Positions 17,289-61,787 are shown, counted from the stretch's first letter. The stretch is 64,000 bases of DNA from Chrysomallon squamiferum (GCA_012295275.1 CM022670.1:19034001-19098000), one strand, 5' to 3'. Translations and numbers: made by a program. Notes: generated from the letters alone by a model not told the origin.

Positions 17289-19963
17289 CTGAACAATAAT
17301 AAAAATAATAAAATTAATAATCCTTTTGTTTGTCATTTGCACAAACATAAATATATATGTGTGTTTGTGTGTGTGTGTGTGTGTATGAGTGAAAAAAAGG
17401 TTTTATGTTATGAACAATGGAAAAACAAAAATAAAAATAAAAGAAATCTTGACAAATTACTTGTACTCGTTTTCAATATCAAACAGAGAGGAAAAAATAA
17501 GTAATAAAACATAGAGATTACTTTTTTCTTCACACACGTGCATGCACACACACACACACACACACGTACACACACATTTGTATGTGTCTATTGTTGATAT
17601 TATTTGATTAATTTTTATCCTTCAAATACAGCCTATGAAAAATGCAAAGTTCTAGTTCATGTATTAAACATGGGAATGTGATACTGAAGAAAAATTATGG
17701 TGATCATATTTGTTTGTGCTAATAATCTAATGGATATTAGTGGAAACTGTTTTGCTTATGAATTACTATTATAATTCATTAATTTCATGCAATAATATTT
17801 TATTTGAGATATCTGAAAATTAGGTATAAAAAATATTTTAAAAAACATATTATTTAAATACCTCATGTTAAAAATATTATAATGTATAATGTATATACAT
17901 TAACACATGTAATTAAAATTTAAAATAAAATTAACTAATATACTGAATAAAATTTTTATAAAAACAAATTACATTTGAGGTTTCTTGATTAAACAATGAA
18001 AAACATTTAAACTGCATACTTAAATAGCAAATTTTTTTCTTTAAATATAAATAATTTTAGAAATAAGGTTAATAAGTATTTCCTAGAGATTAACTCATTA
18101 AGTAAAAAAAAAAAATGAAATGACAATTAAAAAAATAATTATAATAAAATATTTAATAATGAATAGAAATAAAGCTTTCAGTATTTTCTTTCAGAACTAG
18201 CAGAACTTCAATATTCAAAATATTAAATATCAAATAAGACAAAAATTGGAAATAAATAAATAAATAAATAAATAAATAAATTAAACAAATTAAAAAAAAA
18301 AATAATTTAAATGATGCATCCATTAAATTTTAACTTTATAACTCAAAATATATTTTTCATAGATTAAATTTTAAAAACTAATAAAACATATTGCATAAAT
18401 CAGATAAAAAATAACAGAGTAAATTAAATATAATAAATAATAGATAAACTGCACATTTAATTTTAAAAAGAAACTAAAGGAACTATTACATTTAAGGATC
18501 CTTTGGATTAAATATAAAAAATAATTTAAGAAACTGCATAAATCATACAAAAATCAGTTGAAATAATTTATAATTTTGAGTGATTAAATATAAAAAAAAA
18601 CCCACGTAAAATGCCTGTTTCATTTAAGTGATAACTGAAACAACTCATAAATTATACTAAAAACAAATTATTCAAAATAATATATACAATCACTAAAAAA
18701 AAAATATTGTATAACTGTTTAATTTGGCATAAGGAACATAAACACTTAGTAAATTTTTGTTTTGTTTAAATTATATATATATATATCTTACAGAATTTTG
18801 TTGTTGTTTTGTTTTTGTTTTTTACTTGCATTTTAAAATAAATAAATCCAAACCTGTTGTTACGTAAGATACAATTTTAAATGAACAAAGTAATTATATT
18901 ACTATTATACATATATATATATAAATATGCATGTATATATATGGGTGTTTTTTTTGATGTAGTGAAATATTCATAAATGATAAAATTAAAACATTCAATA
19001 TATTTCCTCCTACTGAAAATAATTATTGTAAAACAACAAAGGGTTATATTTGATTTATTCATTCAGTAATAAAAAATAAAAAAAAATTTAAAAAAAAAAA
19101 AAATGTTTAAAATGTAGTGAAACAAAAAAAAAAAAAAAAAAACGGTTTTCATATATCCATAAAGATAAAGAATAGTTAGATATAAAAATAAATTAGCAAG
19201 GAAGCTTTAAAAAAAAAAAAAAAAAATCCCTGACAACAACCAAATTACACTTTTATAAACTCAAACAAATTAAACAAAAAACAAACAGGACATATTTCTT
19301 CTTACAGTTGAGAAAATGATATATATCAAAACATATCAGTTCAAAACTATTATTCTGATATTTTTAGGCCACTTTTTTATTTTTATTTTATTTTTTATTT
19401 ATTTTTTATTGTTTTTAGAAGTTTATGTTTATATAAATTTATTTTAGTGAAGCTGCCATAAATAGAAAATATAAAATCTTTGAATGCAAAAAAAAAAGTT
19501 TTTCATAAAAAATTAAATACATAACTGCAAAATGTTAAGATAAAATAGAAAAATAATTTTTTTAAACAAAATAAAAATAAAATAAAATAGCAAAAATGAA
19601 ATAAAACATAAAATATTATTAAAATTAAAAATTAAAACACGACAAAATATTTAAAGTAAATTTTTGAAAAATACAAAATAAAATAAAACCAACCCAAAAC
19701 CAAAACCATACCAAATAAAAAAATAAATCCTTAAAATAAAATAACTAAATAATAACTAAAAAATAAATAAATAAAAGAAAAATATAAATTAAATACTGAA
19801 AAAACATAAAAATGTATAAATTCTAAAATTAAAATATTGTTACTAATATGTCTTAAAAGACAAATAAAAATAATAAAAAATATAATAAAAGAAAATGAAA
19901 GAAAGAAATTTAAAAAAATGGCAAATATCCCCAAATAATACTGATGCAATTAAAAATATAATA

Positions 19964-20423: not shown

Positions 20424-20567
20424 CAATACGGAAGTCTACGTAACCTTCACCCCCAGACAAAACAAGCTTGGTGTTACTTTGTGGGGCTGGGACAGCCTCC
20501 TGTCGGGTTTTCATGACTTTGGTACTGTCGTCATCACTGGCAGCACTCATTCCTTTTCTTGGAAATC
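20424..20567 (-). CDS. MAPK8IP3: JIP3 penultimate exon FPRKGMSAASDDDSTKVMK...LVLSGGEGYVDFRIG
   Basis: ttttcttaaaag|GA TTT...ATT G|gtgagt, 144 nt, phase 1-1; a second in-frame AG could start the exon at 20552. Confidence 0.93.
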
Positions 20568-20685
20568 CTTTTAAGAAAACAACAGCAAGTGTTAATATAG
20601 TTATATATAAAAAAATTCTTGGGTTACTTTTGTCATTTATTTTACATTTAAAATCTTTAATTTGTATGTGTTGTGTTGTGTTATG

Positions 20686-20717
<32 letters not shown>

Positions 20718-22132
20718 CTTTGTTATATTTATTTAATTTAAAATTCATACAAAAATAAATTTCATTTTCAATAAACATGAATTTACAATTTATAATGATA
20801 AGCTAGATAAATATATAAAATATACCAAATTTTTTATTTCAATACATACATTTATAATTATTGCTGTAATATTTATTTTACTTAACTATATATAATGATA
20901 AGCTTGATAAATATATAAAATATACAAGAATTATATTTCATTATAGGTTTGTTAAACTTTTCATTTAATAAATGCTATGTAAAGAAGCTGTGTATATAAA
21001 ACAAACTAATAGTAAAATAGCAGTTTATTGAAATGGAATTTAAAACCTAATATAATAATTTCTTTATTTTCTTTTAACATTAATAAAGAATGATAGCTTA
21101 AAATAATAATAATAATAATAATTAGACACACACACAAACATTTTATTATTGATTTTGCTTTGTGTAGAACATTAGTGCTTTGTGGAATTTCTTAATGTAA
21201 ATATTTTTCATTAAAATAATTTGTTTTTACATATTTACTTTATTTTTATTTATTTAATTTTAAAAATTATTATTGTTATTACTGTTTTATTTTTGTTAAT
21301 TTAATTTTTTTTTTTTTTTTTTTTTTTGAGAAAAGAATGATTATTTCATTAAAAAATAAACTGATTTTTAATAGAAATAATTACGAATACATAATTACTT
21401 ATTATTTAGTGCTGTTTTTCTGTTTACTTGGTTTTTTCAACTTATTAAATCCTAAAATATCTACTACTTTCTTCAGACAAATATAAGTAACATTACAGAA
21501 AAATTATTTATTGAGACTGAGCAATTTAATTATCAATTTAAAAATAATGTTTACTGGAAAAATTAGGATTTTGTAACTTAAACATCTTACAATATCAGTA
21601 TTTATAATAAATATAAAAGTAAAAATATATTAATGTTATTTTTGTATTTTACAATTTAAATTTAATAAATGTAGAGGACGAAAATGTTACAAATAAAAAG
21701 TTTTTACAAATACAGATGCTATATTTAGATAAAAATTGGCAATAATAGAAAATAAAAAACAGAACTGTCATTTATATTTATTCATTATTTATAAATAAAT
21801 ACAGTAATTTAAAAAATAGTAATAGCAAAGTGTAACAAATTTCTTTCTTTATTTTACCAATCAAACAAATATTGATTTTATAACTAAAATGTTTTTTCAA
21901 CAAACTGATAAACATATAAACAAAATTAGTAATATGCGCAGTATTTTAAATATAAACAATTTTTTTTCAAATCCATTATTTATATTTTAATAGTTTTTTC
22001 TTTTTTCTTTTAAAAAAAATACAGATTTTATTATTGAAATCATTTTATAGTGCATAATTTAAAATGTTTATTTGTATCTGTATATTATTATTAATTATAA
22101 TATTTTTCTTATTTATTTATTTATTTATTTTA

Positions 22133-22184
<52 letters not shown>

Positions 22185-24051
22185 TTGTTGTTGTTGTTGT
22201 TTAAATATATTTAACTGATCTTTGAAACTGGAAATAAATATACATCTTATAAACCATAATTAATCATAAAACAGAAAGAAAAAAGAAAGAAAAAACAAAT
22301 AAAGGCTTTGTGTTTCATACAATGGAGTATTACTTGTAGTGAAATATATCAAAGTTGCTTATTTCCTGTATTCAAGAGAAAGCTGATATTTAACTGCACC
22401 CTTGATTCTTTCCATAAACCTGCTAGAAATACTAATTTATGTATAGTAATTAAATTTTCACTGATCACTGAACCATTATATAATATAAATGAAGGGTGGC
22501 ATACAGAAAATCTTTAATTAATTAATTATAAATGATAATAATAATTACAATAATACTGATAATAACAACAACAATAATAACACCCTAAATTTTGAAGGTA
22601 CAATAGGTTATTTTTAATATCCTGGCCTATGTTCCTAAAAAATGTCAGTATACAAGTAGCTCTGACATTTGTTATAAGATTTTGGCTTACTGATAAATAA
22701 AATCATATTCTTTAAGGTAGTTATATATTTCCATTTCAATGAACATGAATTTAGAATTTATTTTCTAATGCAACTCATACACTGGAGAAATAAAAATAAA
22801 GCATTAGAAGTGATGACTTCTTGATAAATGTTTTCAGTTATTACCATTCTACCATAACAAAGGTATGACCTACAAGCAAAATTAATGTTGAGAAGAGAAA
22901 ATTTTACATTTACATCCAAGCATTGTTGTAAGTTAAGTTTACTTTGTTTAGTGAATTATTCAGTAACCACAGATTAACAATTACACATAGAACAACTTGT
23001 TTAAATAATCAATTCTTTTTTCAGCTTACCTTATTTACATTGTTTTATGTATATTAGGAATATATTGCTTTGAAACTGGTTTTTTTTTTTTTTCAGTTAA
23101 TGATTATTATTATTACTATTATTACCATTATTTATTTTATTTTATTATTATTTATCATTATGATTATTATTATATTATATTATTTATTTATTTTATTTTT
23201 GTACATTTTTTTAAGAATTTAAATATAAATTCTAAAATATTAAAATCAAGTTCAGTAAAATTTTGTAAATGTATTTTAATAAACTAGTATATTTTTACAG
23301 CTTTATGGTTTTAGCAGTAAAGATAAACATATTCTAACATGTTATTTATAAACAATTAACAAGCTAAATATGATTTCATTCAGCAAGCAGACTTAAGGCA
23401 GTTTTGTCAAATGCTGATTACATTTTCAAATGTTTATTATGCTACTTTTTCAAATATGCATTATGTTAGCAACAACAACTTTGATATTAAAAATTGGTCT
23501 CATATAAAGACTGTCTTTTTTCTTTGGTGTGAGTAGTTATTGTTGTTGATTTTATATATATATATATATAGTAATAAATAAATAAATAAATTAATTTAAA
23601 AAAGAAAAAACAACAATATAAATTATAAATAAATAAATAACAAAAACTAGTATAACACATTTTTTTAAAAGAGAAAAGGAAAAAGTGAAGAGATTTTTAA
23701 AATGTTAGTGTGAAATTAAGGATTACTATAATCATCAGTGCATTTTTAAATGTTTATACTAACCATAACCTATATTAATAATAATAATAGTTGTAGCTGC
23801 AGCAGTAGTAATAAATTTAAATTTTATTCTGTAAAAATTATTACTTTTTGAAAAAGAACAAACCAATTATGAAAATAATCTTATGTCTGCTTAAAATTAA
23901 AAAATTAAATCTGTAAATTAATATTTGAAAGGCTAATATTTCTGATATGCAAAAAACATTTTAAAATATATAACTAATAAAACCATAAAAATAGCAAGCA
24001 GATTATTTATAATTATTATTTTTTTTAACTAATTATAAGCCAAACAGATAC

Positions 24052-24075
24052 CTGAGATATCAGAGCCAAAATCAC
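24052..24075 (-). CDS. MAPK8IP3: Candidate 24-nt microexon (GDFGSDIS)
   Basis: ttttattttatttcaag|GT GAT TTT GGC TCT GAT ATC TCA G|gtatct; phase 1-1. Confidence 0.65.
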
Positions 24076-25515
24076 CTTGAAATAAAATAAAAATAAGACC
24101 AATTAATAATATAACTTTACTTAACCAAGAGCTAATTAAAGTGTATCTTTGTTGAAGCATAAAAATAGTTAATATGTTCTGAATACTTCAAAGTTATGAT
24201 TTTTGTCTATTTATTAATTAATTAATTAATTAATTAATTTTATTTATTTATTTATTTATTTAAATTTTATATTTATTTTTTATTTTTTATTTTTTGTTTG
24301 CCATCCTATCTTAATTAATAATGAACTATAATAGCATAAGAGTTTGTTTGCTATTCAAAATATATTTGCTATTTCAATATATGTATGTGTGTTTAAAAAT
24401 ATCTCAGTACTGCCATTGTTTGGTTGCTGTCATGGCCTTCTCCTTGTATACAGATTTGCCTTAAAGTTCTTTCTAGTGTTGTCATATATTCAATGTCATC
24501 ACATCAGTTATGAAGGGGTAAATTGTCAGTGTTCAGATAATATTTTGCCATACTTTGCTGAATTTTATTAAACCATTTATTTATACTTGAATTTCAAGAG
24601 CAGTTTCTGTTCAGGTATAATTTCTTTTGGTTCTATATTAAATTTATCACAGTTTAGCTTCTAAAATCAACTGGACAATATGAATTACACTGCAGATAAA
24701 TGATGAGTAAATTAAATGATGAAATTGATGTAAAGATTATTAATGAAGGAATAGAAATATCTGAAAACAGTCTGAAACATAATTGTCCATTAATTTCTGA
24801 TTCTTTTCAGATAATTTAATAAACAAAAGGAATTTCTAAACATGCATAACCAAAGCTAAAAACATATATGTTAAAACCATCACCAAAACTGTGCCAAACC
24901 ATGCCAACATGGACACAAAAAAGGAAAAGTAAACCATACCAGAACTGTTTTTGTATTTAATTTAATTAAAGATTTATGATTTCAATAGCAGTTAAATCTG
25001 TCACAGTATGAAATCAAGCATGATAATCAATTGATAAAATATTTCAATAAACCAAGATGATGCAGCATTCTGTTAAAGGAAATATTTTCACATAAAAAAT
25101 ACTTATGAAATTATAAAACTTAATCAACTGCAAAATTAATTTCCTGCAATAGTTATAAATTATGATTAATGTACAAATATGCTTTTATCTGCTGACACCA
25201 ACATAAATTTTGTATAGTCATTTCTTAGAAATATTGGTTGTGAAATACTGACATGTAAAAATATTTCTCTATGCAAATACAAAATAACTTTAGTTTCAGT
25301 ACAACAACACTAGTTTAAATTTGTTGTTTTACCCCAACAATAATCTTTTAACATTTCTTGATTTTCTTACTGAAATACTGCAACAGTTAACAATTTAATC
25401 TACAAATATCATTTACATATTTTTACTAAAAACAATAACAGAAAACAGATCTGGTATGGTTTTGTATTAGTAAATCATGCAGGTATTTAAACAAAGGAGA
25501 GAAAAGCATTAATAC

Positions 25516-25545
25516 CTTTAATGGACTGAATGAACTTGCCAACAG
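25516..25545 (-). CDS. MAPK8IP3: Candidate 30-nt microexon (AVGKFIQSIK)
   Basis: ttttttttatcatctgtattag|CT GTT GGC AAG TTC ATT CAG TCC ATT AAA G|gtatta; phase 1-1; UGCAUG and ACUAAU within 50 nt downstream. Confidence 0.65.
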
Positions 25546-25694
25546 CTAATACAGATGATAAAAAAAAATATATATATTGAAACATAACAACAAAAGCAAA
25601 TAATAAAACAGTAACACAGCTCAAACTGAATACAAAGCAAAATAAAAATAAATCTGAAAACAGAAATTATAAATCATGCAAAGTTCATATGTAT

Positions 25695-25736
<42 letters not shown>

Positions 25737-25817
25737 AAACATATTCACATTAAAAAAAAAAAAAAAGACATTTATTTTTTCTGAATTTTAAAAGAAATGA
25801 TGACTGAGAAAGGAAAC

Positions 25818-25832
25818 CTGTTGCCAAGACTT
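25818..25832 (-). CDS. Candidate 15-nt microexon (EVLAT)
   Basis: tctgcag|AA GTC TTG GCA ACA G|gtttcc; phase 1-1; UGCAUG ~140 nt downstream. Confidence 0.45.
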
Positions 25833-26776
25833 CTGCAGACTTGTCATTTGTGTTACATATTTACAGAAAAAAAAACATATCATAATAAACCAGATATCAA
25901 ACATTGGTTGGAAAGAAAAACAGTTCATGTCTGATTTTCAATCAAGTAAATTCTGCGAGTTTTCAAACCCAGCTGACTCACTGAACATACATACACTGTG
26001 TTGTTATAGGATATTAAATCTAAGAATAAATGTTGAGACTGCTTATTGTTATATGCCAAGTGCTGATTATAGGTAATCATTATCTGAGGATTGTCTTTGG
26101 TTTGTTTCATGTGCATTGCTATAGATTTGTATGCACATAAAGTGTGTGATTTGGTATCAAGCTGTTGACACAAATTAGTTTCATCAATACATGGAGGCCA
26201 TAAAATGAAAATCAACATAAATTATATGATAACTGAATAACTGCATATATGTCTATCGTGAAGCAAAATATATTAGTTATGTTCTTAACAGCACTGGGTA
26301 AAGGAGTATTGATTATAATTGTAACTTATTAAAATAAAGATATCATAACAGCATAAGGGTAAAGATATTTATATATCTTCTTTACTGTCCAAGTTAAAAT
26401 CAGTTTATTTCAAAGTTATATAAATTTAAAGGGTAGGGGGCAAAATAAAGGGTAAAGGAAAAGATATAAATAATGAGTATATGGGCAAAGAGAAAGAAAT
26501 TACCTCATTAGTTTTAGAATTCAGTCACAATTTGTTTTTGTTAATAAAAAAAAAAAATTCAGCTGATTATTAAAAATAATAAGTAGTTAAAGGTGATCTT
26601 CTTTTTTCTTTCTTTTCTTAAGCTAAATATATAAATATTAAAAATTAACCAATATTCATCATTTAAAACAATTTTGATACTCATTAATTGGATTCTTACA
26701 TATATTTAAGTTTTAAGTTAAATTTAATAAACTACTATTATTTCCAGTCAAAACAACAAATATTTCACTGCAGGCA

Positions 26777-26801
26777 CAGACAGACAGACAGAGACAGAGA
26801 C

Positions 26802-26893
<92 letters not shown>
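26777..26893. repeat. (GACA)n/(GA)n microsatellite
   Basis: Direct reading; produces the spurious ER/SL-repeat ORFs. Confidence 0.95.
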
Positions 26894-26894
<1 letters not shown>

Positions 26895-27301
26895 AAGAAA
26901 AAGAAAGATAAAAAAAGAGAGAGGAACACAAGACGAAAAAAAGGAATGAATATAACAGAAATAGAAAAACTCCTCCAGCAGAAACAATTTGTCTGAAGTA
27001 AATTAGAAACAAACAAGAAACTTAAAACCATTATTGATTGACTAAAACCATTTTAATTCTTTTTCGATTCTGAAAGGTTAGTTCCAAATCCTAAAATCTC
27101 AGTGGAGAGTAATGAAATGCATGTCTTTCAAATAAATCAATATTTGTTAAAACAAATTTTTAATTACAAAAAAAAAAGTAATTCTCTCTTATTATTTTTT
27201 TTTTTTTTTTGTTTCGTTGTGTTTTTCAACTAAGTAAAAAATTAATTTAAAAAAAAGTAAAGAAAAGAGACAAAATAATAGATTTTTTCTTCTAATTGCA
27301 T

Positions 27302-27340
<39 letters not shown>

Positions 27341-27470
27341 CCATAAAATAAAGTCGATATTTAGAGAAAAAGATATGTGTCTTAATAAAAACAAATAACT
27401 ATTTGTAATTTGACAGCCTGAAAAGATTTACTGTTATTCAGTGCCAATAACATGTGACAACTGGCCAAAC

Positions 27471-27512
27471 CTGGCAAAAGCCATATCATTATGTTGACTT
27501 TGTAGTGACAGT
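27471..27512 (-). CDS. Candidate 42-nt exon (DCHYKVNIMIWLLP)
   Basis: gttgcag|AC TGT...TTG CCA G|gtttgg; phase 1-1, open frame; weak pyrimidine tract. Confidence 0.35.
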
Positions 27513-28709
27513 CTGCAACTCTATGAAATCACAGTCAATCTATTAGCTAGACAGCATGAACAATACAAGAATGTCCATGTGTGAAAGAAAATAAAACAAA
27601 ACAATTTAGAGTTTATCAGCCAAACTGAATGAACAACAAAATGTAAAAAGATAGAACTAATCACTATAAATGCATTTCTGGCAGTAAATTATTTTAGGCC
27701 AGGACAATCAATAGAAACAAATTGAAAGTAAGATTCATTAATAGGAACAAAATTGATATTATTAACTTCTTTGTCACCTTTATTTCAGAATTAACTTGCA
27801 AGAAGCAAATTTAATTGTTTTTAAATCAGGTCAAAAGAAGATCTAATAAATCCTGTCAGCACCAGATGATGTTTTTGTTAATAGAAAAAAATACATCAAA
27901 TTATATTTATTAAATATGAATTAAAAGTAACAGTTAATTTTTTTATTATTTTTTAATTCAAAATTTAAAATGTATTAGATAATAATTTGTTTCAGAATCT
28001 ATTTAGGTTAGAATAAAAAACAAGAAATAAAATCTGTGAAGAATTTCTGATGCACTCAAGCGAATGTTTTCACAAGTTATTACTATAATCAATCCAGATT
28101 TCAGAGGGCAAAAACCCCCAAGAAATCAAAGTGAAAAAAAAAAAATAAAAAAAAAAAATAAATAAAATAAAATAAAATAAAATAAAATAAAATAAAAAAC
28201 AGAGCTTAGTTTCTAATGATATTAAAATATATACATTTGAATTTAAAATTTTCCTTCCACAAATTCATTATCAGACTTAATAAAAAATTCAGTAAAAAAA
28301 TAATACCACTAAATATTCATATTTTGTTATTATTTAATTCTTTTTTGGCTTGTTTCTTAACATTCAACTTATACATAATCGATAATGCAACAAATTCTGC
28401 AGTATAATTTTTATTTCCAGTGGAAATGTTATCTCACAATCATGAATTCTGTTTAAACACCACAGTGCCAATGGTAGAGTGGCTAGAAAATTCCAGAAAT
28501 ATATATCTAGCCTGACATTCTACAAACAAATTTACTTACACTAAAAATATTAAAGCTGAACATTATTACTTATACTGATATGACAATTATTTGCCCATAG
28601 AAAACAGTTGATATGTGCCAGTATTGCAGTCTTGTACACTGAAAGGTGACATCTGAACTCAATTCTTCAAATCAATAAAACAAAAATATTCTAAAGCCTT
28701 CTTATCTAG

Positions 28710-28748
<39 letters not shown>
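28710..28748. repeat. (ATCT)n microsatellite
   Basis: Direct reading. Confidence 0.9.
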
Positions 28749-31700
28749 CATATATATAAGACACATTTTAACTGAAAACATTTAATGTAACAATGTAGTT
28801 AAGACACGATAACAAGTGAATAACAAAAGTTTAATGATACATTTAACATGAAATTCTGTATGAAGAAATATGGCAACTGTTCTGAAGTGATTTCAGACAA
28901 ATAAAATAATGCAGCAAAGTACTACACCTTATTTTTTAAAAACAAATTTGGGGCTAAATTCCTTACAAAACATTCTGGTTTGTAAAAACATAATAATAAA
29001 ACAAAGACTCTTAGTTATAACAACACTTAGAACTATTCCTGCAGACAAACATATCAATTAAACTTTTCTGCTTATTTTATTATTAGTTTTTTAAAAAATA
29101 ATTTCATATAATAATACATACAGTTTTTGATTACTGTACATAAATATTAAATATTAGGATAGCAGAATAACATGTATTTCTATTCTGATACTAGTTATTC
29201 TTACATTCTATATTTTATGTATTATTTTATTTACACTAATTCTGAATGAATGCAACTAGACTCAAAATAACAACATGTCTGATGTAATAATATCACAAAA
29301 CACTAATGTGTGAAAAGAATAACAATAGTATTAAAGCATAACAACTGAACTCAAGACTTGGATTAAGGCACATGGTATTTACTAAGAACGGAATGCATCC
29401 AATTTACCAGAGATGAAAGGTTACAATATTTAGTAATTTAGGATAATAATTTCAACATGTAATTGTTATAACAAAGGCAAATGTTTAATTATGACTCATT
29501 TCATACAATTTCTTTTCTTTTTTTTCTTTCAATTAATTTTTTTTTATTAATATTCATATTTTTATTTGATAAATAATTAACTTGGCTATGTATGCATATT
29601 ACATAGTGATAAAAAATGTTATATTATTATAGATAATATTCACATTTATGCTCAAAGTATATTAAAAAACCAAAGTAACACATTTTTTTTAATTTTAAAC
29701 AAGCATTCACAGATCAAAAAGAACAATAACCAACAAATAATAAATAAATAATATTGTACATAAAATTTACAGACAGTTTAAAAAAATAAAAAAGTAACAA
29801 AACCTAATCCTAAATAAATTTAAATAATCAGATATATGGAAATGGAAATACTTTAAGCATGATTACTTCAATCCACATAATAGCTATGGTAATGTGTACT
29901 CAATATATATGAAAAAACTGTTGAGCTGCCATAAAAATCTGGTTATTGCAACAGTGGTGATTTAATTCTTTTCATTCAATTAACCTTCAAGAACACACAA
30001 GTCACGTTTTCTGCGACAAATTAATTACTGGTGACATTTTATAGGCATTTTCTTTCATTTCTTGTGACCTTTACTTGATTATAACATTACCTTTATTCCA
30101 TTTTTTTTTTTTTTTTTTTTTTTTGTTGTATGCTAGTGTCCTTTTTTAAATAGCATTTGGTGTGTGTGGCAAATAAATCAAAATTGATTTGAAGTACTGT
30201 CCTTTTAAGTCATTTCAATATAACTGTCTTTTGTTATTGTAGTAAACAAGTAACACAACAATTTGATTATATTTCTCTATTTTTTGAGTTTTTCTTAGGG
30301 TGGATTTTGTTGTTTTTATTGTTGCTTTCTATTGTTATTGTTGTTGTTGTTGTTGTTAGGATTTGTTGTTGAAATATTGTAATATGTTAATTGCTTCATG
30401 ATACAAATAGATGTTGGCAAGGATTTGTAATTAAAGTTACGTGTTTTTTTCTTCTATCAACAATCAAAATTAATTTGTAAGTATACACACACTTCCTTTG
30501 GGCATATTTTATATGTCATCAAAAATATATTTCATAAAATGTCTATTTTGAATATTTGTGTGACCTTCTGGACATAAGACAGATACTCAACCCCTAGATA
30601 AAATCCAAAATCCTTCTTTCAAAACTACTTTATACACAGAGAACCAGACAAGTTATTTCAACATACTTAATGAAACCCTAGCATGATAAGCTTAGCAATC
30701 ATTGTAAAAGACAAAATGGAAAATCTCTGATGACTACTTTGACTGTTTTGCCAAATCTCAGCAGGATGATGAATACATCCTGGTTAATAATGATGTCTGA
30801 GACAAAGTGTGAAGGCAAGAAATAATACTTTTATTTGTGTCTTTATTATATGTCAAGGGAAAGAAACTAAATATTTACTTGTTTCTCTATCCCTACATTT
30901 CTGTAATTTAAGTTTTGCGTTTGCCTGAGATTTCTCTGGTGTCAAAAACAACATCCCATGTAGCACAGATCAGTGCATACAAAAATGTCATTATTTGAAC
31001 TCTTTTTAATAATGATTAGGAACCTTTAAAAAATGCAATACAATAAAGATAAGAAGGGTCACCCACAGAGAAAATACAAATTCATTATTTACAAATAATT
31101 TAAATTTAAAAAAATGTTTAATGCAGGCTTCAAAATTGATTTTTTCTTTTCTTTCTTTCTTTTTTTTTTTTTTTTTTTTGTAAAACCAATGGTTATCAAT
31201 CAAATGCTGATGCTAGGAACCAACTAAAAATTGAGGAACTAAATCAATCTTAATGCCACCAAGATTCAAACATTGAAAAGCCACTGATTCTGTTAAATCA
31301 CTACAGAAATAGAAGAGGTAAATAAAATAAAAAATCAATACAAGTCGGTTGAACAAGTGAAAAATGAATGATGTTAGTGTTCTTTCAATGATGGTGATTG
31401 AGTGTTTCAGATTTAGAAAACATTGATCATTAACTGAAATTACTGCAATGTCAAAATTCGTGTCCTGAAATTTTTTCCACAGAATGTATTCTTCAGTCTA
31501 ATATATTCATTAGATAAGTGAACAAATTTCTTAAATTTATTTATTTATTTATTATTATTATTATTATTAATTTTATTTATATATTTTTAAATTCTTATTC
31601 TTATTGTTATTATTTTTTAATTATTGATAACAAATCATTTGTGGTAACTATATATATATATATTTTAACTGTGCATTTGTTTGAAAGATTAATAAGAACT

Positions 31701-33157
31701 AAAATTTTATGAAAAACTCTTTTACAAACTTTCTTTAAAAAGACAAAAAGAAAAAAATGATTTGTGCTATATTTTAATATTGATTTTGTAAGTGGGTTCA
31801 TTCTGTAGGAAGGTGGAAGGAATAGGAACATTTCAGTTATCATTTTATTTTTATCCATAACCATAATTTTATTAATTTAAAAAAAAAAAAAGGAAGTAAA
31901 AAAAAGTTTTCTTTGGTGTAACAACAACTCAGTCTCATCACATTATTAACCTTTTTATCCAGAATACTTTCTGTTTTTTAATGTTGATTATTACAAATAA
32001 AAATGACACTCAAGTAAATGTCTCTATTGACATAAACAGAAGAAAAGGAGTATTTTGTTCACTTTTTCCCATGGCTCTTATGCTTTTAGACACAATTTGC
32101 CAGAAAGAAACAAAATAATAATGTGTTCATCTGCTTTTCAAAAACAATATTCAAAATGGCTACAATTATTATTTCTATTAGGCTAAATAAAAAGTAGTAG
32201 TAGTAATAATAATAATAATAATAAAACAATTTAAATATTTATTAATATAAAAGATTTTCCACAAGTTAAAAAAATAATAATAATAATTTATGAATTTTAT
32301 CATACATCATTTCTGGTCATAAAGAAATATCTAAGATGCAGCAAGAGATAAAAAAAAGTTTTATTTCTCTCGTGCTATAAATAACAGACAGTAGCATCTT
32401 TCAGGGATATGGTTATGAATGCCCTGTAGGCAGAGAAAGACTCTAATCAAGTTAAACCTTGACATTCCAGTCATTGTCTGCGGCTGTGTTTGTGGGCTGC
32501 ATTTAATGACAGTGGCCTGCCAGGTGACTTTGGCCAGATTAGAAAGGACACACATGTGTGGAGAAAATAATTTATTAAATTCCTAGAGGATTATACAATG
32601 CTACTGCTGCCAAGTCAAATCCATAATGTACATGGAATGGAGTATGACCCATCAGGCTGTTTCCACAAGAAGCAATTTTTATTTTGCAAGGACTGCTTCA
32701 AGGGAAAGATGTCTAAACTGCAGGATGGATTTGGCACCATACTTGGTGTGGCTAGCTATGTAATCAGATTTGTAACAAGCAGATGTTTTTGTTTTTTATT
32801 TCTGGTTATTGTTTTTGTTTTTTTGCAATTACAAGATGAGCTATTCAAAAAAGAAAAAAGAAAAGAATGAAACATAATTGTCTAAATTGCTTGGAAATGC
32901 TTTAAGGAATTTGTTTTCTTTTTCTAATTAATATTAGTTGAATAAAGAAACAGTTAAAAGAGAATCTTATGAAAATTATTAATCTAGCATTTCCAAAAAA
33001 TTGCAGCAACAATAAAAACAAGAATAATAATAATTATAATTTTAAATAAAGAAAAAGAGAGCTACTATAAATGAAATGACTTTTTTTTTTTTTTTTTTTT
33101 TTAAAAGATAATAAGAAATGAATGTCACAAAAGAAAGTAATATTTACTTTCTGAAAG

Positions 33158-33201
<44 letters not shown>

Positions 33202-36200
33202 GGAAGAGATAGAACTGATATTTAAAGATACACAAATATTACAAAACATATCAATTAATAAAGTCAGCAACAATAAATGGGAAGGAATGAACAAGAGTGT
33301 CAAAAAAAAAGAGAAAAAGGTTGAAGATAACTTTTATTTCAAAAGAAGTAAAATGCTTGTTTTTGCAGGCAGGAATTCAACCATAATACTGAACCGAGCA
33401 TTAGACAGATTACCTTTTCAGTTAATTAAGTGACTTTAATGTTTCCTCAGTTAGACAGCCATATTCAGCATTAGTAATCCAGTGTCTGCAATGGTCATCC
33501 TTGAATCATATTGACAAGTTCTTTACATTATTCTGGAACTCAAGAATGAAAATCTAATGGTGGAGAATTTCCCAGACAAAATAAAGTTTCCACTTAAAAT
33601 AGTACATCATATAGTATATAATATATGAACTTGTCTCCATTTAAAAACAAGAATATAAACTAAGAAATTTGTATACAATTGTGTTTCCATTCTTTAAATG
33701 TCATTAGTATTTTTTATTTTATGTTCTATTTCTATGCTTCAGCAATACACTATGACTTTATGTATTTCTTTATGGACTCAGACATACCTGAATATATTAT
33801 AAATTTACATTTTTATATAACTTATCATAAAGTATTTTATAATAAATGGGTTATGTCTATTTATTTTTTAAAAATCCATTTAATTTCAAAAGCACAACAT
33901 TCCTAATTATCTGACAATTAAATATTATTTTTATTTACTTTTCAGTTTACATAATACAAGTGTCTAATGATAAAATATTTACTGAATTTGTTCTTTCACT
34001 CCTTGTTCTAAAGAAAATACAAAAATGAGCTCAGCATTTCTTTAACTGACTGACACAAACAGCCAGGATTTTAGCACATATTCCAGGCATGCACAGTAAA
34101 TGTTTGCTCCAATGCTACCAATAGTATTGATTTGAAAAACTATCAGGATCTATCAGTACTCAGATTTGTTTAACACTCTGGTCTCTTTTTCTCTTGAGTA
34201 CAGTAAATCAATTTGTGCTGTCAACAATAGATTCTATATTCAGACGACATGAAAATGTAATGCTGAACTAAATTAATTTTATTTATTCATAAATTACTTA
34301 TTTATTTATTAAAATGTGTAGCCAAGAGAAACTACTTTCACATGACTTAAATATATCTTAGTGTTTTGTTTTTATTCAGTTTATGTTATTTATTTATTAA
34401 TATTTGTACCATCAATTACAGAAATTCAGTTTACATGGCATAATTAGATCAAGTATTTTAAATTTCTATTTAAATACATTTTTATTTATATAAATTTGCA
34501 CTATTAACTACAGAAACTATGTGAAGGTGATCTAAATCAAATCTATAATTTTGTTTATTTATTTATTTAAATTTGCATTGAAGTTTCAGAAGCTATATTC
34601 AGGTAACTTTACAGATCACAGAATGAATTTTGTAAATATAGTATAAATAATTATTTCTGTAATTATTTCTTTATTTAGAATACAAGGAAGGAATGTCACA
34701 TTTTTTGTTATAAAATTATTTATTTATTTATTTATTTCCACATAACAGTTTTTGGAAATTTAATTTTAACAATAAATGATTTATTGATTAATTAATGCCT
34801 TCATCCTCTAATGTTATCAAGAAGAAATTTATATTAAGATTTTTTAAAAACTATTTTTACTGTGAAATTTTATTTAAAATTTTATTTATATGATATCAAG
34901 AAGGGGTAATTATTTGTAATTATACAAAAAGGTGATCCCATATTATGATAAATTAAATAAGTCAAAATGTTTTTCCTAAATTCATTTTAAAAACTGTTTA
35001 TTTATATCTAGCATCTTCAAGATATTATTCATTTAACTGAACTATAAATGTCGCTCCAGTTTGTAAATTTATTTATTTATCTTAACAACAGAAGCTTCGT
35101 TCTAGTCTTAGTAAAATACTATTTATTTATTTGTATGATATATCATAAAGATTTACTCCCTTAATTTTAATCTATTTATATATTAGATGCTCTAATCAAA
35201 TTCATTTTCTCTCTTAATCATAAATTTTCTCCATACTAAACTGGTGTTAAGAAAATCGACAAACTGATTTTAGTGTGATGGCTGCAACAGACATATCCAT
35301 CAGTGAGTAATTGCTGCTTCTATCCACATTAATCAATGACAGAGTCAGGAAAAAACAAATAGGTTTACTTTGTAAAAGATTATATAAATTCATGAACTGA
35401 CCAAATTTAGCTGCCTTCTTTAGATTCACAAAGAAAATAAATTAATAAAGTGAAAAAAGAAAGAAAGAAAATATTTAACCAATAATAATAATTAGAAACC
35501 CCCCAAAACTGTAATAATATAAATATATGTATATATAATAATAACCATAATAATAAATAGCTGCATAAATAATATTAAAAAAATAATGAACTCCATACAT
35601 CAAAAATAAATAAATAAATAATATTAATAATAAATAATAATAAAATAAATAGAATTTTATAATTAATAATTCAAATAAAATGATGAAAATTAAAAAGTAC
35701 AATCAACAAAAAAAATAAAAAAAAAATAAAAAAAAAGATTTACTGGCAATGGAATAGCTTTTAAATTAAATAAATGAAAGATATATCCATTATGGTGTAA
35801 GCAGATTTATGTGCTTGGTCATAGATTTCTTTTAACACTGTGGCTGTCAAAGTCTTCAATGATTTCTGAGTAACGCAGTCTAAGATAACAGAACAATGTT
35901 GCTGACCAGGATGCTGAAGTAGTTGTCAAGTTATTAGATTTAAGACTGGTTGCATTGGGATCTTGTTGACCTACTCTCTTACTGATCTCTCTCTGGCCAG
36001 AGATAGGAATGAAGAAATGGAGTTAAAGAAATAACACATTACAATGCATTATTAATGAATCAAAGAATAAATTTAGCTAAATACTAACACATTAAAATGG
36101 GTAATAATGTTTCTTATCACAAGGTAAATATTGTCTAAAAATACTAGTGTGAAAAGATGAATAAAATATTCCCTTTCTTTTCTTTTATGTTTAAGTGAGA

Positions 36201-38580
36201 TATTAATCTGAAATTGATTTTCCCTTGTAATAATTTATATTTAAAAATATTGTGAAGTGAGCAAAGAAGTATAAAACATATGCAATGACATACTGCAGTG
36301 TTATGAAATTCTAAAAAGTGAACAATTACTATACACTAACCAATGAAAAAGTGGAAGTGAGCAATGTAATATACAGACAGAGTAATCACTGAAATAATAA
36401 TTGACTGAAATTACCTTTATTTTTATATTATATTTACTGCAATAATAACTTTGTGGGGTTTGTTATTCTCTACATAAAATGTATCAGTATGCTGTAATAA
36501 TAAAAAATAAATAAATAAAAAATAAAAATTAAATAAATAGAAATTTAATAAAAGGTGACACAAACCAGTCACGAAATAGCTATGTTGTGTCTGTTGTTAT
36601 CATCTATTCCAATGTCAAACCAAAGTTTAAATAGCAGGGGACCATTTGTAAAAATGAGAAGATAGTAATTCAGTCAAATTCTACATAAAGATAATCATTT
36701 GATGGAATTTTATGCAGAGGTCTCAGCCAACCCAAAAGAGAAAACTGCTCTCCTTTCATACAAGATAAAATCTTATTTTGTTTTATTACTGCAGTTGCTG
36801 TCAGTTTTGTCTAGTCTGTGCATTATTTTGCCACGGACCTACTCTCATCATTAATTTTATTTAATATACCTGACTATCATAGGAAAAATGAATTTAACAA
36901 AAAAAAAAAAAAAAAAATGTAGATTAATGAATTCAAAAAAAATATATTAATATATGACAAGTTTCATATTAACTTTCCTCCCAGCTTTGAAACTGACATG
37001 CTTTCTACACATCAAAGACTTGGTTTAATCAACAGAAAAGCATTTGCCAGCAGGATTGAAAGTTTGATCTGCTTAATTAATATGAAGACATAATAAGCTA
37101 CTTTCCAGCTCCATATGTGACCTGTGTCTGTAGCTGTTCAGTATTGTCAGCTTACACTGGAACTATTTAAATGAGTGGGAACAAACAATGTTGTAGTATA
37201 TGGCATACAATCAAGGAAAATTTGGGTTTTTTTTAACAAAATAAAATAAAATTAGATCAAGAAATATCTCTTGCCAATAACAGATTGCATAATGTAACTT
37301 GTATACAAACTTAAAATAATTTCCATTCTTTATTTGATCACTTAATTAAAGCCCTTTAAAAGCCAAGAAATGACTAAATTATGGAAGGAATATTTGTCTA
37401 CTGATACACTTTTCAGTATTAACAGTTATGTGTCAAATACATTGTTTTTTTCTGTAATAATGATATATGAGAGAACAAACTCATTGCTACCACTTGAAGA
37501 CCCATTCTTAAAGATTATCAGTCAATACATCTTTCATATGCAATTTTCCATAAACAGGAAAACACTTGACACAGCCTTTGATACAACACTCATATAGAAA
37601 AGGAAATAACACAGTGAATGCACTGATTTTTTTTTTTTTTTATTTTTTATTAATTCATATTTTAGGTGACTGCATTTATAGGCCAAAGATTATATCACTA
37701 AGGTGCAGCACTCTGCTTGCCAGCTGCTACAGATTTCAGCTATTGATAAAATTACACAGGCACTTTTTTCAAACATTTCACAAGTATTGTTCTCATTCAC
37801 CATGCTGCTCACTGTTGCTGAACTTTCATTCATTGATTTTTATGTTTGCTAAAAGAAATTATAAGGCTGGTTCATCGATCTGGATCTGAAAAATCCATAT
37901 CTGAACACATGGTGTGTTAATGCAAAGTTATTTTATTCAATCACTTCCTGTGCTGTAACTGGTTACTTTTTTTCCCTCATGAAATTCAATTACTTCAGCT
38001 ACTTGATGGGCAGTAATTTCCTCAGTAAATGGAGTGCATGTTCAAGTAATGTAATTTAGCCATTTTCTGTCTCCACTTTAATGTTTCACATACTTAAATA
38101 ACATATGTGATGATGAAATCTTATTTGAGCAAATGTGCAATCTTGGTTTTATGTTCATTATTTTCTTTTTCATTCAGTTTCAGAAATACCTATAGGTATA
38201 CAGTGTAAAAATGTGTATGTACATATTTATATTGTGTTTATAGATGTGTGTGTAATAAAACTTAATAATACTAGCCTTTCTGAAGGCTTAGCCTGTTTAA
38301 TAACTACAGGAAGACCAGACCTATTTTTGTGTTTATTGACACTGGTTGATACAAAAATAGGAGTATTGTAATTTAGAATGCTGTCATCTAAAACAAAACC
38401 ATTTTGTGGGATTGTGAGTGTATGCTTGTATTTGTGTGCATGTGTGTGTGTGTGTGTGTGCATGCGTGTGGGTTGGTATGTCCCAAATGAAGTAAAATAA
38501 AACAAATTCTTTTCCTTATTAATAATGAAGATAAAATATTTAGATTTTACTTTGTTATTTCTTCTTTCTTTTGTTATTAT

Positions 38581-38613
<33 letters not shown>

Positions 38614-39142
38614 CAGAATGAATGGAAATCCATTTTCACTGACAAAAAATATTAATCTAATGATTTGTGTGAATATTTTTTGCATTACATACAATTCCAT
38701 GAAAGAAAAGCTGAAAAAGTCTATAATGAAGTATGTATTTTTTGTCTGCTTGAAAGTAGAACATAAAGAACAAATAAAAAAAAAAACTAATAATTAATAA
38801 TAATAATCAACTTTTTCAATTAAAACTGCACAGAGAACAAGCATGTTACATTCTGACTAAACAACTAGAAATACAATCAGTATATAACGTTACAGCAATA
38901 AAATTATCATGCTTGAACTAAAAACACTCAGGTAATATTTGTATAATATTAATACATGTCCAGAAAGGAAATATACAAAAACAAATGAAAGACCACACAC
39001 ATTAAAAGTAATTGTTTTGCATTCACCATTTATATGTTAATCTAGCAATAGCTAAAAGGTTTTCTTTATTATCATTAAAAAAAAATCTATATAACAAATT
39101 TTGCATTTAACCAATGAAAAGAATAATCTGTATAATTCATAC

Positions 39143-39166
39143 AGATTATTCTGATCACCTTGAAAC
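39143..39166 (-). CDS. Candidate 24-nt microexon (GFKVIRII) with hairpin-covered donor
   Basis: ttaacatttgctttgactgctatcatttcaccag|GT TTC AAG GTG ATC AGA ATA ATC T|gtatga; phase 1-1. Confidence 0.4.
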
Positions 39167-39500
39167 CTGGTGAAATGATAGCAGTCAAAGCAAATGTTAA
39201 CTTCTGGTGCTGATTCTTTTCTTGATGAAAGATTTTATACAAAAATAATAAATAGTCAATAAAAATAAAAATACATGTTCATCATTTCTTTTAATTTATT
39301 TGGAGGCAAAACTAAATATTTTATTCTTGTGGCTTTAATAACAAAATAAATTTTAAAAAAGCAAAAAAGAAACCAAGACACCTCAAATGTCAAGGTCATC
39401 ACCAAGACAACAACATAACACAAATAATACCAAAACCATATGACAATAGCATCACAACAAAGAGATTTAAAAGGATAATAATGATAATAATAAAACTAAC

Positions 39501-39683
39501 CTGGGACAGCCACAAAAAACTTGACAGCATCTTTATGTCCATGGAATGAAAGCTGAGCTTGTGCCATGGAGCAGTAGGGTATAAAACTGCTGGGTGTCAC
39601 ACTGTCTGTCCCTGCGTCACTGTACACACGCACAACACCGCCTGGTTGACGCTTGCTTGATGTTGTTACTTGTTGTTTATTAC
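39501..39683 (-). CDS. MAPK8IP3: JIP3 exon [22 protein letters not shown]...[29 protein letters not shown]
   Basis: atgacag|GT AAT...CCA G|gttagt, 183 nt, phase 1-1. Confidence 0.96.
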
Positions 39684-40643
39684 CTGTCATTAAATCAACG
39701 CAAAGAAAATTATTAATAATAAGGAAGCATACAAACATGTTTTTAAGACATTTACATTTATTTCAATAACAGTAAAATACAATAATAAAACAATGTAAAT
39801 CGTTTGGTTTTGGAGATTTGATCTTTCTTGTAAATATCAATCTGTTATATTTATTGGAGGGTTTTGGTTTTAATGTCAGCATTAAACTATAGATTTTTCT
39901 ATATAACAGACAGGCAGTGATGTATTAATTCCAAAAATCCATGTTTTAAATTCACAAAAATGTAATTAGAGAGATGAAAACAAAAAAAACAACATATAAT
40001 AAACAAGAATCGGTTATAAAATAGTTTATAAGCTTATTAATATAACCAATAAAAACAAAGAGGAAGAAAGAAAAAAGAAGAGATTTATGGCTGATATTTA
40101 TTACTTTTAGTAAAACATCTGCTGTGGTTGTAAAATATAGTTATTTCTACCGTAACAGAAAAGGTTCATATAAACATAAAAAAGTTAAGACAGAATACCT
40201 GTTTACAAAGAGAAATACATAATATCATAAAAAAAACTTTGGATATAAACATGCAAATGCAACTGGTCAAATTTAACTTTCTCTTACACTGCACAATTAA
40301 TAAATTAAGAAACAGTTTTGTGAAAAATGATGGCACTTGCAGTTCTGATCTACCTCCAAATCATGATTATAGATTTTGTGAAAATGTTAGTCTACAAAAT
40401 AAGTTGGTGATGTAAGTTCCTTATGGCCTACTTCAGGAATAAAATTCTACAAGCCTGTAATTCTTTAACTACAGCAAGTTTTTTAGCAAATGTTCAATGT
40501 AAAAAATTTTTTACTTTTGTCTGTTCAAGCTTAGTTCAGTAAAAAGGTTACATTTTATTTAAAAGAAACACTGAAAATTGCTAAAGTTTTTATAGTAATA
40601 AGAAGTTAACATTTTATCACGATATGGCAAAGTGCAGTCTTAC

Positions 40644-48421: not shown

Positions 48422-50063
48422 CTGATAGCAAGCCTCCACAAATGAACAGTAAAAACAAATTTAGTTTTACTAATTATGAGAGTAATTTAAGATGTATAAT
48501 TTATATTTTAAATAATCATGCATTATTACATCTGATGAGTATTTGAGAATGACCAATAATTAAGCTATTTCTATCTACATTTTTATATACCTATTTATTA
48601 TTATTATGTTTGTGTGTGTGTGTGCATGTGTGTGTTTTGTTTAATTCAGTGTGGTGTAAGTAAAACAAGTGAAAATCAGTTATAAAACAATAAAACAAAT
48701 CTTTTAAATGTTCTTCTATAACAAGTATTTACGATAATTATTACTATTATTACATTAGAGGTTGAAGTGTAAGCATTTTTGTACATATGATCGGGTAGAT
48801 GTGTGCATAACTTAAATATATTTATCTTAGTTTGAGAAGTTCAAATTTGCTGTATGAAGTCTGACTTAGAATATATTACTACATTATTTATTTATTTATT
48901 TTATTATTATTATTTTTTTTTATCCTGCCTGCTATCAGTCCATGATCAAAACAAAAATTAAACAACTTAAACAAGATATTTTTCTGTACTTTGTTATTTA
49001 ACTCACAATTAAATCCATAGAGAATGACTGCAAAAAATAAAAAGGAAAAAGATGTCCACTAACAATTAACATGCAAGAAAGTCACTTCAATTTAGAATAG
49101 TTGTTGTTACAGTAGTACTAGTGGTAGTAATAGTAATGGTGATTTTGGTGTAACATTAGTAGATGCAGTAGTAAATTTAGCAGTAGTAGTGGTTTTTGTT
49201 GATGGTGTTAGTTCTGATGATAGTGTAGTATAATAATATACTGGCTCTTGTTTACATGTCAAATCATGTCACATGGCTACAGTGATTATTTATCTGCTTA
49301 TCAAAAAATTCACATATACAAATATATAAAATGCTGGCAAATAATTATGGATTTGTTTGGTAGACAATAATTATTTATCGTAACTGAACTTCAATAAACT
49401 TTGAAATGGTGACAATACAAGCCAATTTCTGAATTACCATGAATATCACTAGAACATTGATCAAAAGTGCTATACAGTCTAATACTGTACTTTAGAATGA
49501 AGTAAAGTCTGAATAATAGTAATCCATGCAACAAACAATAATTATAAGGCATACACAAATGCATACTAGCATGCACATATATGTATACACATTACCACAT
49601 GTTCCAGTTTAAAACTATAATTATTCATATCATTTTCATCTTTGTTTATAATATGCGTGTGTGCACTGATGACCAAATTACTAATTCATACAAGAAGGTG
49701 CAGCTTTAGGATGGTGAGGGAGACTGAATCTCATTATTCATAATGATCCATCATCTTTGCACTCACTATAAACTATTTATTCTTGTAAACCTTAATGGTC
49801 CACAATCTTCACTGATCCCTGATAAGATTTAAATGTTCATAATTTTCTGGTGCAATTCAAGGACATAGAAAACAAATTAAAGCTTAAATACACATATTTT
49901 GAATTAAAACCAAAAACACACATATTTCATAACAAACATAAAAACAACAAACCAAAAAACTACAACAAAAAGTAACAAAAAAACCCTAACAATATGTACA
50001 TCCAGACTTAATTACTGTAGATTACAAAAATAAACTAATAAACAAAATATAATTCATATTAAC

Positions 50064-57120: not shown

Positions 57121-57868
57121 AATAACACTACTGCATATTTCACTAATAAAAGAAGAAAGTATGTAAAGGTATTTCAAATTTGAAATATGAAATATAAATT
57201 AAATAAAATGATTAACATACTAAACTGTGAATTTTGTAGCTTTTCTAAGCTGCACATTAGAATTTGTGTAAATAGTAAATAATAATAGCAATAAGCATAG
57301 TAGTAGTAGTAGCAGTAGTAATTAAAATAAAAAAATAAAAAAGTAAAAAGTAAATATATAAAAAATAAGTTCTTAATTAGCTTCAATTAATAAAACCCCC
57401 ATGAAGAATTAAAAAACCAAAACTAGTAAAAAGCAACAAAAACAAAACAACAAAAAAAGTGCTTAAACTCAACAGAACCTTATGTCCCAAATAATATTTA
57501 GTGCAATAACAACTGCTGGCATATAGTATGAACAAAGATAAATACAAAGTAAATATAAAGAAAAGAAGCATTCAAAACAGAGAGCAAACCTCAATACATT
57601 AACAAGTTTGTTTTCTTCACAAGCATGTTTGTAATTTTTTTATTTAGTACACTGTAATATTACTGATAAATAATTAAAGAGGATACTTAAAGTTGAAAAA
57701 AAATAAATATGATGTCTGTTGCTATGAATGTCCCCAACAAAATCAATTATTTTTAAATCAGAACTGAAGAATCCATTGTCCATCTCTGTTTTCAAAGTAC
57801 ATCTACAGGAATACCGCCTCCAAGAAAGCAAGGAAAAAACTTTATTCCAAATGCCATATTTTACTTAC

Positions 57869-61769: not shown

Positions 61770-61787
61770 CAAAGAAACTGTCACTGA
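61770..61787 (-). CDS. MAPK8IP3: JIP3 18-nt microexon VSDSFF(G)
   Basis: Long pyrimidine tract, caacag|TC AGT GAC AGT TTC TTT G|gtaagc; phase 1-1; matches the VRDDFF segment preceding GMGKEV in human JIP3 (recalled). Confidence 0.88.

Follow-up and report, generated by a model that had tools for sequence, protein, structure and literature searches.

The question raised by this locus is whether five short segments in the longest mapped intron of a Chrysomallon squamiferum gene are exons, and what their optional use would do to the encoded protein. The window, the whole stretch of 64,000 nt that was analysed (CM022670.1:19034001-19098000), holds the 3' two-thirds of the gene on the minus strand. 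Judged by orthology, the gene is the gastropod member of the JIP3/JIP4/Syd/UNC-16 family. Its exons are colinear with residues 430-1408 (the end) of the Gigantopelta JIP4-like protein at 79-100% identity in exon-to-protein mapping, the orthologous sequence spans the LZII, RH2 and WD40 regions, and database matches of the gene bear PF16471, PF23748 and PF19056. As had been claimed, the phase-1 intron at 20568..39500 is the largest of the 20 introns mapped in the window (18,933 nt, against 8,617 nt for the next). The upstream flanking exon (39501..39683) ends in ...KFFVAVP plus one G and shares 97% identity with the Gigantopelta aegis JIP4-like protein and 92% with that of Haliotis; the downstream flanking exon (20424..20567) encodes (G)FPRKG...SGGEGYVDFRI and was covered by RNA contigs in all four runs. 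Among 20 listed of at least 60 repeat families, the repeats in this intron were low-complexity only and did not include any of the proposed segments. A metagenome scan for related intron DNA returned two distant loci (49% identity; 16 residues matched), which are uninformative on intron conservation.

The original prediction placed five cassettes in the intron, all on the minus strand: A (39143..39166, 24 nt, GFKVIRII), B (27471..27512, 42 nt), C (25818..25832, 15 nt), D (25516..25545, 30 nt, AVGKFIQSIK) and E (24052..24075, 24 nt, GDFGSDIS). All five are indeed bounded by AG and GT, multiples of three, in phase 1 and internally open. The claim that they are stop-free fails for A, which creates TGA if joined directly to the downstream exon at 20567 and TAA if placed before C. 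Stop codons arise in 5 of the 32 ordered combinations of the five segments, every time with A involved, and combinations of D and E preserve the frame without a stop. Nor do splice-site letters and frame lift the segments above chance, since the intron contains 387 stop-free phase-1 AG..GT segments of 3n length and at most 60 nt, and its antisense strand 352. Splice-site matrices were built from 20 acceptors and 20 donors of the JIP3/4 gene itself, and by their scores E ranked first among the 387, D 18th, B 55th, A 145th and C 227th.

The RNA basis was four runs of one study, as assembled contigs without tissue labels (of five runs that reach the gene's 3' end, four are recorded as RNA), and the contigs were compared only at the junction into the downstream exon. 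In two runs (X1 and X2) the contig of the downstream exon runs straight into the upstream exon, which is the skip form and gives the skip junction of the large intron. In X3 the contig reads downstream exon, E and upstream exon, with E joined at both ends; the junction evidence consists of 30 letters spanning E plus 8 nt of the upstream exon. The fourth run (X4) has a branch at the acceptor of the downstream exon without an exonic loose end. Because the X3 contig includes E while X1 and X2 skip it, this species has E as a true exon that it can include or leave out. It is thus an alternative cassette by the species' own RNA, and its 24 nt place it among microexons at the cut-off of 27 nt or less (as in PMC8378409). 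Segments A, B, C and D were unseen in the four RNA contig sets; contigs lose rare forms, and these data do not show absence.

Further evidence was drawn from isoform records of relatives, which are RefSeq and GenBank computational models whose totals include records not reaching the region. The 10 Gigantopelta records comprise one skip form, one with D only, six with D and E, one with a third insert of 10 residues and one ending at the junction. The 17 Haliotis records divide into one skip form, two with E only, one with D only, 12 with D and E and one partial, and all four D/E combinations are represented. The size and order of D and E are the same in the two genera. Twelve insert peptides from the relatives' isoforms were matched against the intron. 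D was the top match of the Gigantopelta 10-residue insert (7/10 identical), and the E-like peptides of both Gigantopelta and Haliotis had their top match at 24075, in each case with exact AG/GT boundaries and equal length; E is 5/8 identical to its Gigantopelta counterpart. Inserts from Patella, Pomacea, Physella and Mizuhopecten found no match at AG/GT boundaries in the intron.

D is consequently regarded as a conserved exon that is likely optional as well, its inclusion and skipping being known through the Gigantopelta and Haliotis records only. With 30 nt it lies above the microexon cut-off and is a short exon by that measure. D-like inserts that are basic, Ala-initial and 30-33 nt long were found in seven genera (Gigantopelta, Haliotis, Pomacea, Babylonia, Physella, Biomphalaria and Plakobranchus) and probably represent one ancient exon. 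The peptides of D and E diverge fast (3/10 and 3/8 identical to Haliotis), a counterpoint to the explanation preferred below.

How widely the junction varies was counted on listed cluster members, no more than 15 for any one cluster, with the MAPK8IP3 isoform sets left out. Among the records listed, all seven gastropod genera with isoform sets are variable at this junction. There are two forms in Patella (16 listed records), three in Pomacea (17), three and a truncated one in Physella (14) and seven in Biomphalaria (12), and Babylonia shows all eight combinations of three inserts in 16 listed records. Other snails hold three or four cassettes, and two to four small phase-1 exons stand in tandem at the site. 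Outside the gastropods, four forms were found in Mizuhopecten (17 listed records) and three in the nemertean Lineus (15), and the hemichordate Glandiceps has a 2-residue difference at the junction (6 listed records). No variation at the junction was present among the listed records of the oyster (Magallana), Mytilus and Mya (15 each), of Lingula (5), of four arthropods (10-15 each) or of three nematode sets (10-15 each); the invariance in oyster, mussel and Mya is a further counterpoint to the explanation preferred below. None of 120 listed mammalian SPAG9-like records has an insert at the VP|G junction, and nine C. elegans records reaching the snail junction are invariant there. The annotated gene models show the junction to be a gastropod-wide hotspot of tandem small phase-1 exons. 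In 138 of 140 distinct loop starts the first residue is G, A, V, E or D, which is what a phase-1 intron after G demands. The proposal that the cassettes diversify the loop between FFVAVPG and SGGEGY was correct as to place: optional phase-1 exons in differing combinations do insert there.

The third Gigantopelta insert brings segment A into consideration. Over its full length it matches nothing in the intron (top score 18 for a self-score of 48, against 23 on the antisense strand); for its prefixes, at every length from 3 to 10 residues, A comes first or second among the 816 AGs of the intron. Since this likeness of the prefixes was first spotted by eye and then scored, and since similarity on the DNA level fades past five codons, A stays uncertain. 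Homology of its acceptor to that of the Gigantopelta insert appears about evenly balanced on sequence grounds, and A is probably a degenerate or poison version of the third exon. A ends in T and has a stronger donor after 8 nt (39159; score 8.2 against 4.1). If A acted as a poison exon, its inclusion alone (TGA at the junction) or use of the 8-nt donor (frameshift) would leave the last blade truncated or set off nonsense-mediated decay, lowering JIP3/4. The stop tests, the stronger early donor, the resemblance of the acceptor to that of the Gigantopelta insert and the truncated records at the junction in Gigantopelta and Physella agree with such a role. We nevertheless consider it unlikely, given that no junction of A was present in the RNA contigs, that its acceptor scores only -3.6, and that DNA similarity extends over so short a stretch of the Gigantopelta insert, itself an exon of 30 nt that reads open.

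B and C are likely chance segments. Neither is among the top five matches of any of the 12 insert peptides, and the isoform records examined show, at this junction, no 5-residue insert such as C (acceptor score -7.3) would give. The VLAT of C is found just after the junction in vertebrate JIP3 too, but there it is one residue out of register, and it is absent from the mollusc records; the likeness was judged, without formal statistics, to be chance. The claim of five cassettes is accordingly reduced: D and E are supported, A is uncertain, and B and C have neither RNA nor orthologue support. As a filter, AG/GT plus frame performs weakly: of the five picks, made from a pool of 387, two were real.

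The five segments had been proposed to be neural microexons under the control of SRRM3/4-type eMIC domains and RBFOX, which would allow up to 32 loop variants. By a published account, the eMIC code consists of UGC near a weak acceptor and a long AG-free zone (PMC8797185, as far as its accessible text goes). E is unlike this pattern, as it has no UGC in the 60 nt upstream, its splice sites are strong (acceptor score 10.6), and its AG-exclusion zone of 37 nt is ordinary beside the 32-nt median of 20 constitutive acceptors. The acceptor score of D (4.3) and its AG-exclusion zone of 72 nt both fit the pattern, but the only UGC near this acceptor, at -53, is not close to the 3' splice site. Among A, D and E the best fit is A, which combines a weak acceptor with UGC at -26 and -17.

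The UGCAUG motifs, among which the cassettes were said to lie, give a divided result. There is no intron-wide enrichment: TGCATG occurs four times on the sense strand and four times on the antisense strand in the 18.9-kb intron, against 25 sense copies across the gene's 46-kb part, a density per kb below that of the rest of the gene. Three of the four sense copies are clustered (24841-25680) within a 2.1-kb span around D and E (binomial P about 0.005, for a span chosen by the analyst). One of them (25476..25481, minus strand) lies 35 nt downstream of D, and the two others of this local cluster are at 25675-25680 and 24841-24846 on the same strand. A UGCAUG downstream is the enhancer position for RBFOX-regulated exons, and the copy next to D is a candidate RBFOX enhancer.

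Taken as a whole, the five-exon neural model is very improbable. It has on its side that all five segments are AG/GT-bounded and 3n, that D and E are real, that other snails have three or four cassettes, and that A combines its UGC motifs and weak acceptor with a start like the Gigantopelta insert. Such segments are however abundant in the intron, the low-ranking B and C match no insert seen, 5 of the 32 combinations contain a stop, and E has no eMIC features. The prediction is partly confirmed in the form of a two-exon, perhaps three-exon, optional set, and the five-exon neural array is not upheld.

Another reading concerns the way in which E is skipped. When the upstream exon is spliced to 24075, the donor CAG|GTGATT is rebuilt, with a score of 9.5 against 7.3 for the own donor of E. 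E thus starts with a rebuilt 5' splice site, a feature expected of RS-exons (recursive-splicing exons). In this case the intron would be removed by a two-step cut at 24075, and competition between the rebuilt and the own donor, rather than exon definition, would decide skipping. Of the 33 AGGT sites that the intron contains, this one scores highest (20.1), the G-D-F start of the peptide is kept in Gigantopelta and Haliotis, and annotated alternative RS-exons, repressed by the EJC, are known (accessible part of PMC6224609). As a putative RS-exon, E resembles these in that its junction to the upstream exon re-creates a strong donor inside a long intron. The score is also unexceptional, the best of 31 antisense sites reaching 18.8, and the matrices were derived from 20 sites only. 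GT is moreover common as an exon start, and a phase-1 Gly supplies it for free. Recursive splicing is accordingly an unlikely but live route for the skipping of E, and it is compatible with the explanation preferred here.

To place the inserts in the protein, an AlphaFold model of Gigantopelta residues 718-1401 was used (65-sequence alignment, pTM 0.76); no solved structure of a JIP3/4 WD40 domain was found. The nearest folds by Foldseek are WD40 propellers. In the model the inserts lie at 580-597, directly past the strand 572-579, within a loop (580-629) that extends up to the strand 630-638 and has pLDDT below 50 at 590-610, which is predicted disorder. Read from the strand order, the domain would have seven blades, with the insert loop connecting strands one and two of the final blade. 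The loop is poorly conserved across the 65 aligned sequences and nearly absent in some orthologues. Since the insertion is in a loop that some orthologues nearly lack, the modelled fold should tolerate any combination of inserts.

The explanation that we prefer, and hold to be reasonably probable, is that E, spliced in or skipped, and the conserved exon D would add 8, 10 or 18 residues to this disordered loop and thereby likely tune a partner-binding surface by tissue. The inserts would lengthen the surface loop predicted to be disordered in the last WD40 blade, the exon definition of the weak exon D may be helped by RBFOX bound at the UGCAUG downstream of it, and tissue-regulated inclusion of D and E would allow the loop to modulate WD40 partners such as RUFY. 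The JIP3/4 WD40 domain had been described as "of unknown function" before it was reported, for fly Syd, to bind RUFY, and the accessible text of that paper does not localise the RUFY site on the propeller (PMC12772503). Removal of the WD40 domain left dynein unactivated (PMC7615804, accessible part). The splice-remodelled loop of snails, scallops and a nemertean is a candidate surface for the binding of WD40 partners.

The exons could also be real and nearly neutral, a long intron at a dispensable loop gaining and losing small in-frame exons that hardly affect the protein. The fast divergence of the peptides, the different exon sets of the lineages and the weak conservation or near absence of the loop are in line with this, and in zebrafish most microexon deletions had little effect (PMC12626420, accessible part). 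However, D retains its length of 30-33 nt, its first Ala and its basic character across seven genera, and the size and order of D and E are kept in Haliotis. Furthermore, deletion of a different microexon, in syd, gave phenotypes in flies (bioRxiv 10.64898/2026.09.05.749416). Near-neutrality is thus judged rather unlikely, and tuning of the loop by D and E remains the preferred reading.

The original prediction knew of no earlier account of such an array in JIP3. Alternative exons of JIP3/Syd genes have in fact been published, but at other positions; partly loose searches found no published account of this junction in molluscs, and the isoforms are already in public annotations of related snails, undescribed. 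According to a study whose species list has Octopus as the sole mollusc and whose supplements may list this site (bioRxiv 10.64898/2026.09.05.749416), Syd/SPAG9/MAPK8IP3 is a hotspot at which neural exons recur. The snail exons add a mollusc site to this recurrent exon gain. The same source describes the 18-nt neural microexon of Drosophila syd. It is comparable in that small optional exons arise repeatedly in the same gene family, but it lies beside leucine zipper II, whereas the snail exons are in the WD40 domain.

In C. elegans, exon 16 (84 nt) of unc-16, also a JIP3 orthologue with a regulated cassette exon, is under neuron-type-specific regulation by UNC-75/CELF, EXC-7/ELAV and PRP-40 (PMC8378409, PMC3627589, accessible parts). 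A 28-residue isoform difference in C. elegans is taken to be this exon; it falls at model residue 222, in another propeller loop. The 13-residue exon of mammalian SPAG9/JIP4, whose position is not given in the accessible part of PMC12307810, likewise inserts optionally and in frame into a loop of this propeller, but it is located one junction upstream (model residue 519, intron 39684-40643 of the window). By these two model positions, unc-16 exon 16 and the SPAG9 exon were rejected as exons of the snail junction. The usual propeller geometry puts such loops on one side, and the strand order of the model suggests that the snail, SPAG9 and C. elegans loops share a propeller face. A bolder and rather speculative extension would be that molluscs and nemerteans built a lineage-specific, combinatorial exon array into one propeller loop, where it would encode cargo-adaptor binding by cell type, on a face modified independently in mammals and nematodes, with recursive splicing switching E and a poison exon upstream setting the dosage.

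Tandem optional exons in a loop are of a known kind, that of agrin Z. The Z8/Z11 exons of agrin and Z6/Z5 of Ciona are adjacent, small and in-frame, and are used singly or jointly (PMC12445529, accessible part; listing entry of PMC10139058). They differ in that neural inclusion, dependence on Nova and the making of an Lrp4-binding motif are established for agrin, with no shared motif being conserved; as with D and E, two neighbouring small in-frame exons alter a short segment of the protein.

At the VP|G junction, formed by the phase-1 intron 20568-39500 between the upstream exon 39501-39683 and the downstream exon 20424-20567, two distinct 18-residue inserts are carried by the Biomphalaria records P0605-P0610 and occur together in none of 12 records, a pattern that mutually exclusive exons would be expected to leave. 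When the donor of the upstream exon is read through (39497-39500, minus strand), a glycine and then a stop are encoded, and a glycine after this exon is precisely the last residue of one Gigantopelta record. The Gly-stop read-through may represent a retained-intron or intronic-polyadenylation form without the last propeller blade, or else a modelling artefact. In the RNA runs X3 and X4, contigs that cover the downstream exon extend past its edge into intronic sequence (window 20540-20660), reflecting either unspliced RNA or library DNA.

Small segments were also found elsewhere in the gene, all on the minus strand. An 18-nt phase-1 exon with AG/GT ends (61770-61787) encodes a match to the six Gigantopelta residues VSDSFF, immediately ahead of leucine zipper II, and the equivalent residues are missing from one Haliotis record; this region is likely that of the 18-nt neural microexon of Drosophila syd. 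Ahead of the first propeller strand, a 21-nt phase-0 segment (49007-49027) whose splice sites are strong (score 17.2, first of 67 within its own intron) matches an optional 7-residue insert of Gigantopelta. High-scoring candidate acceptors lie at 57142 in the 8.6-kb intron, whose junction is variable in Haliotis and primates, and at 19729 in the last intron, whose junction varies in records of Mya, Bemisia, Zootermopsis and Panulirus.
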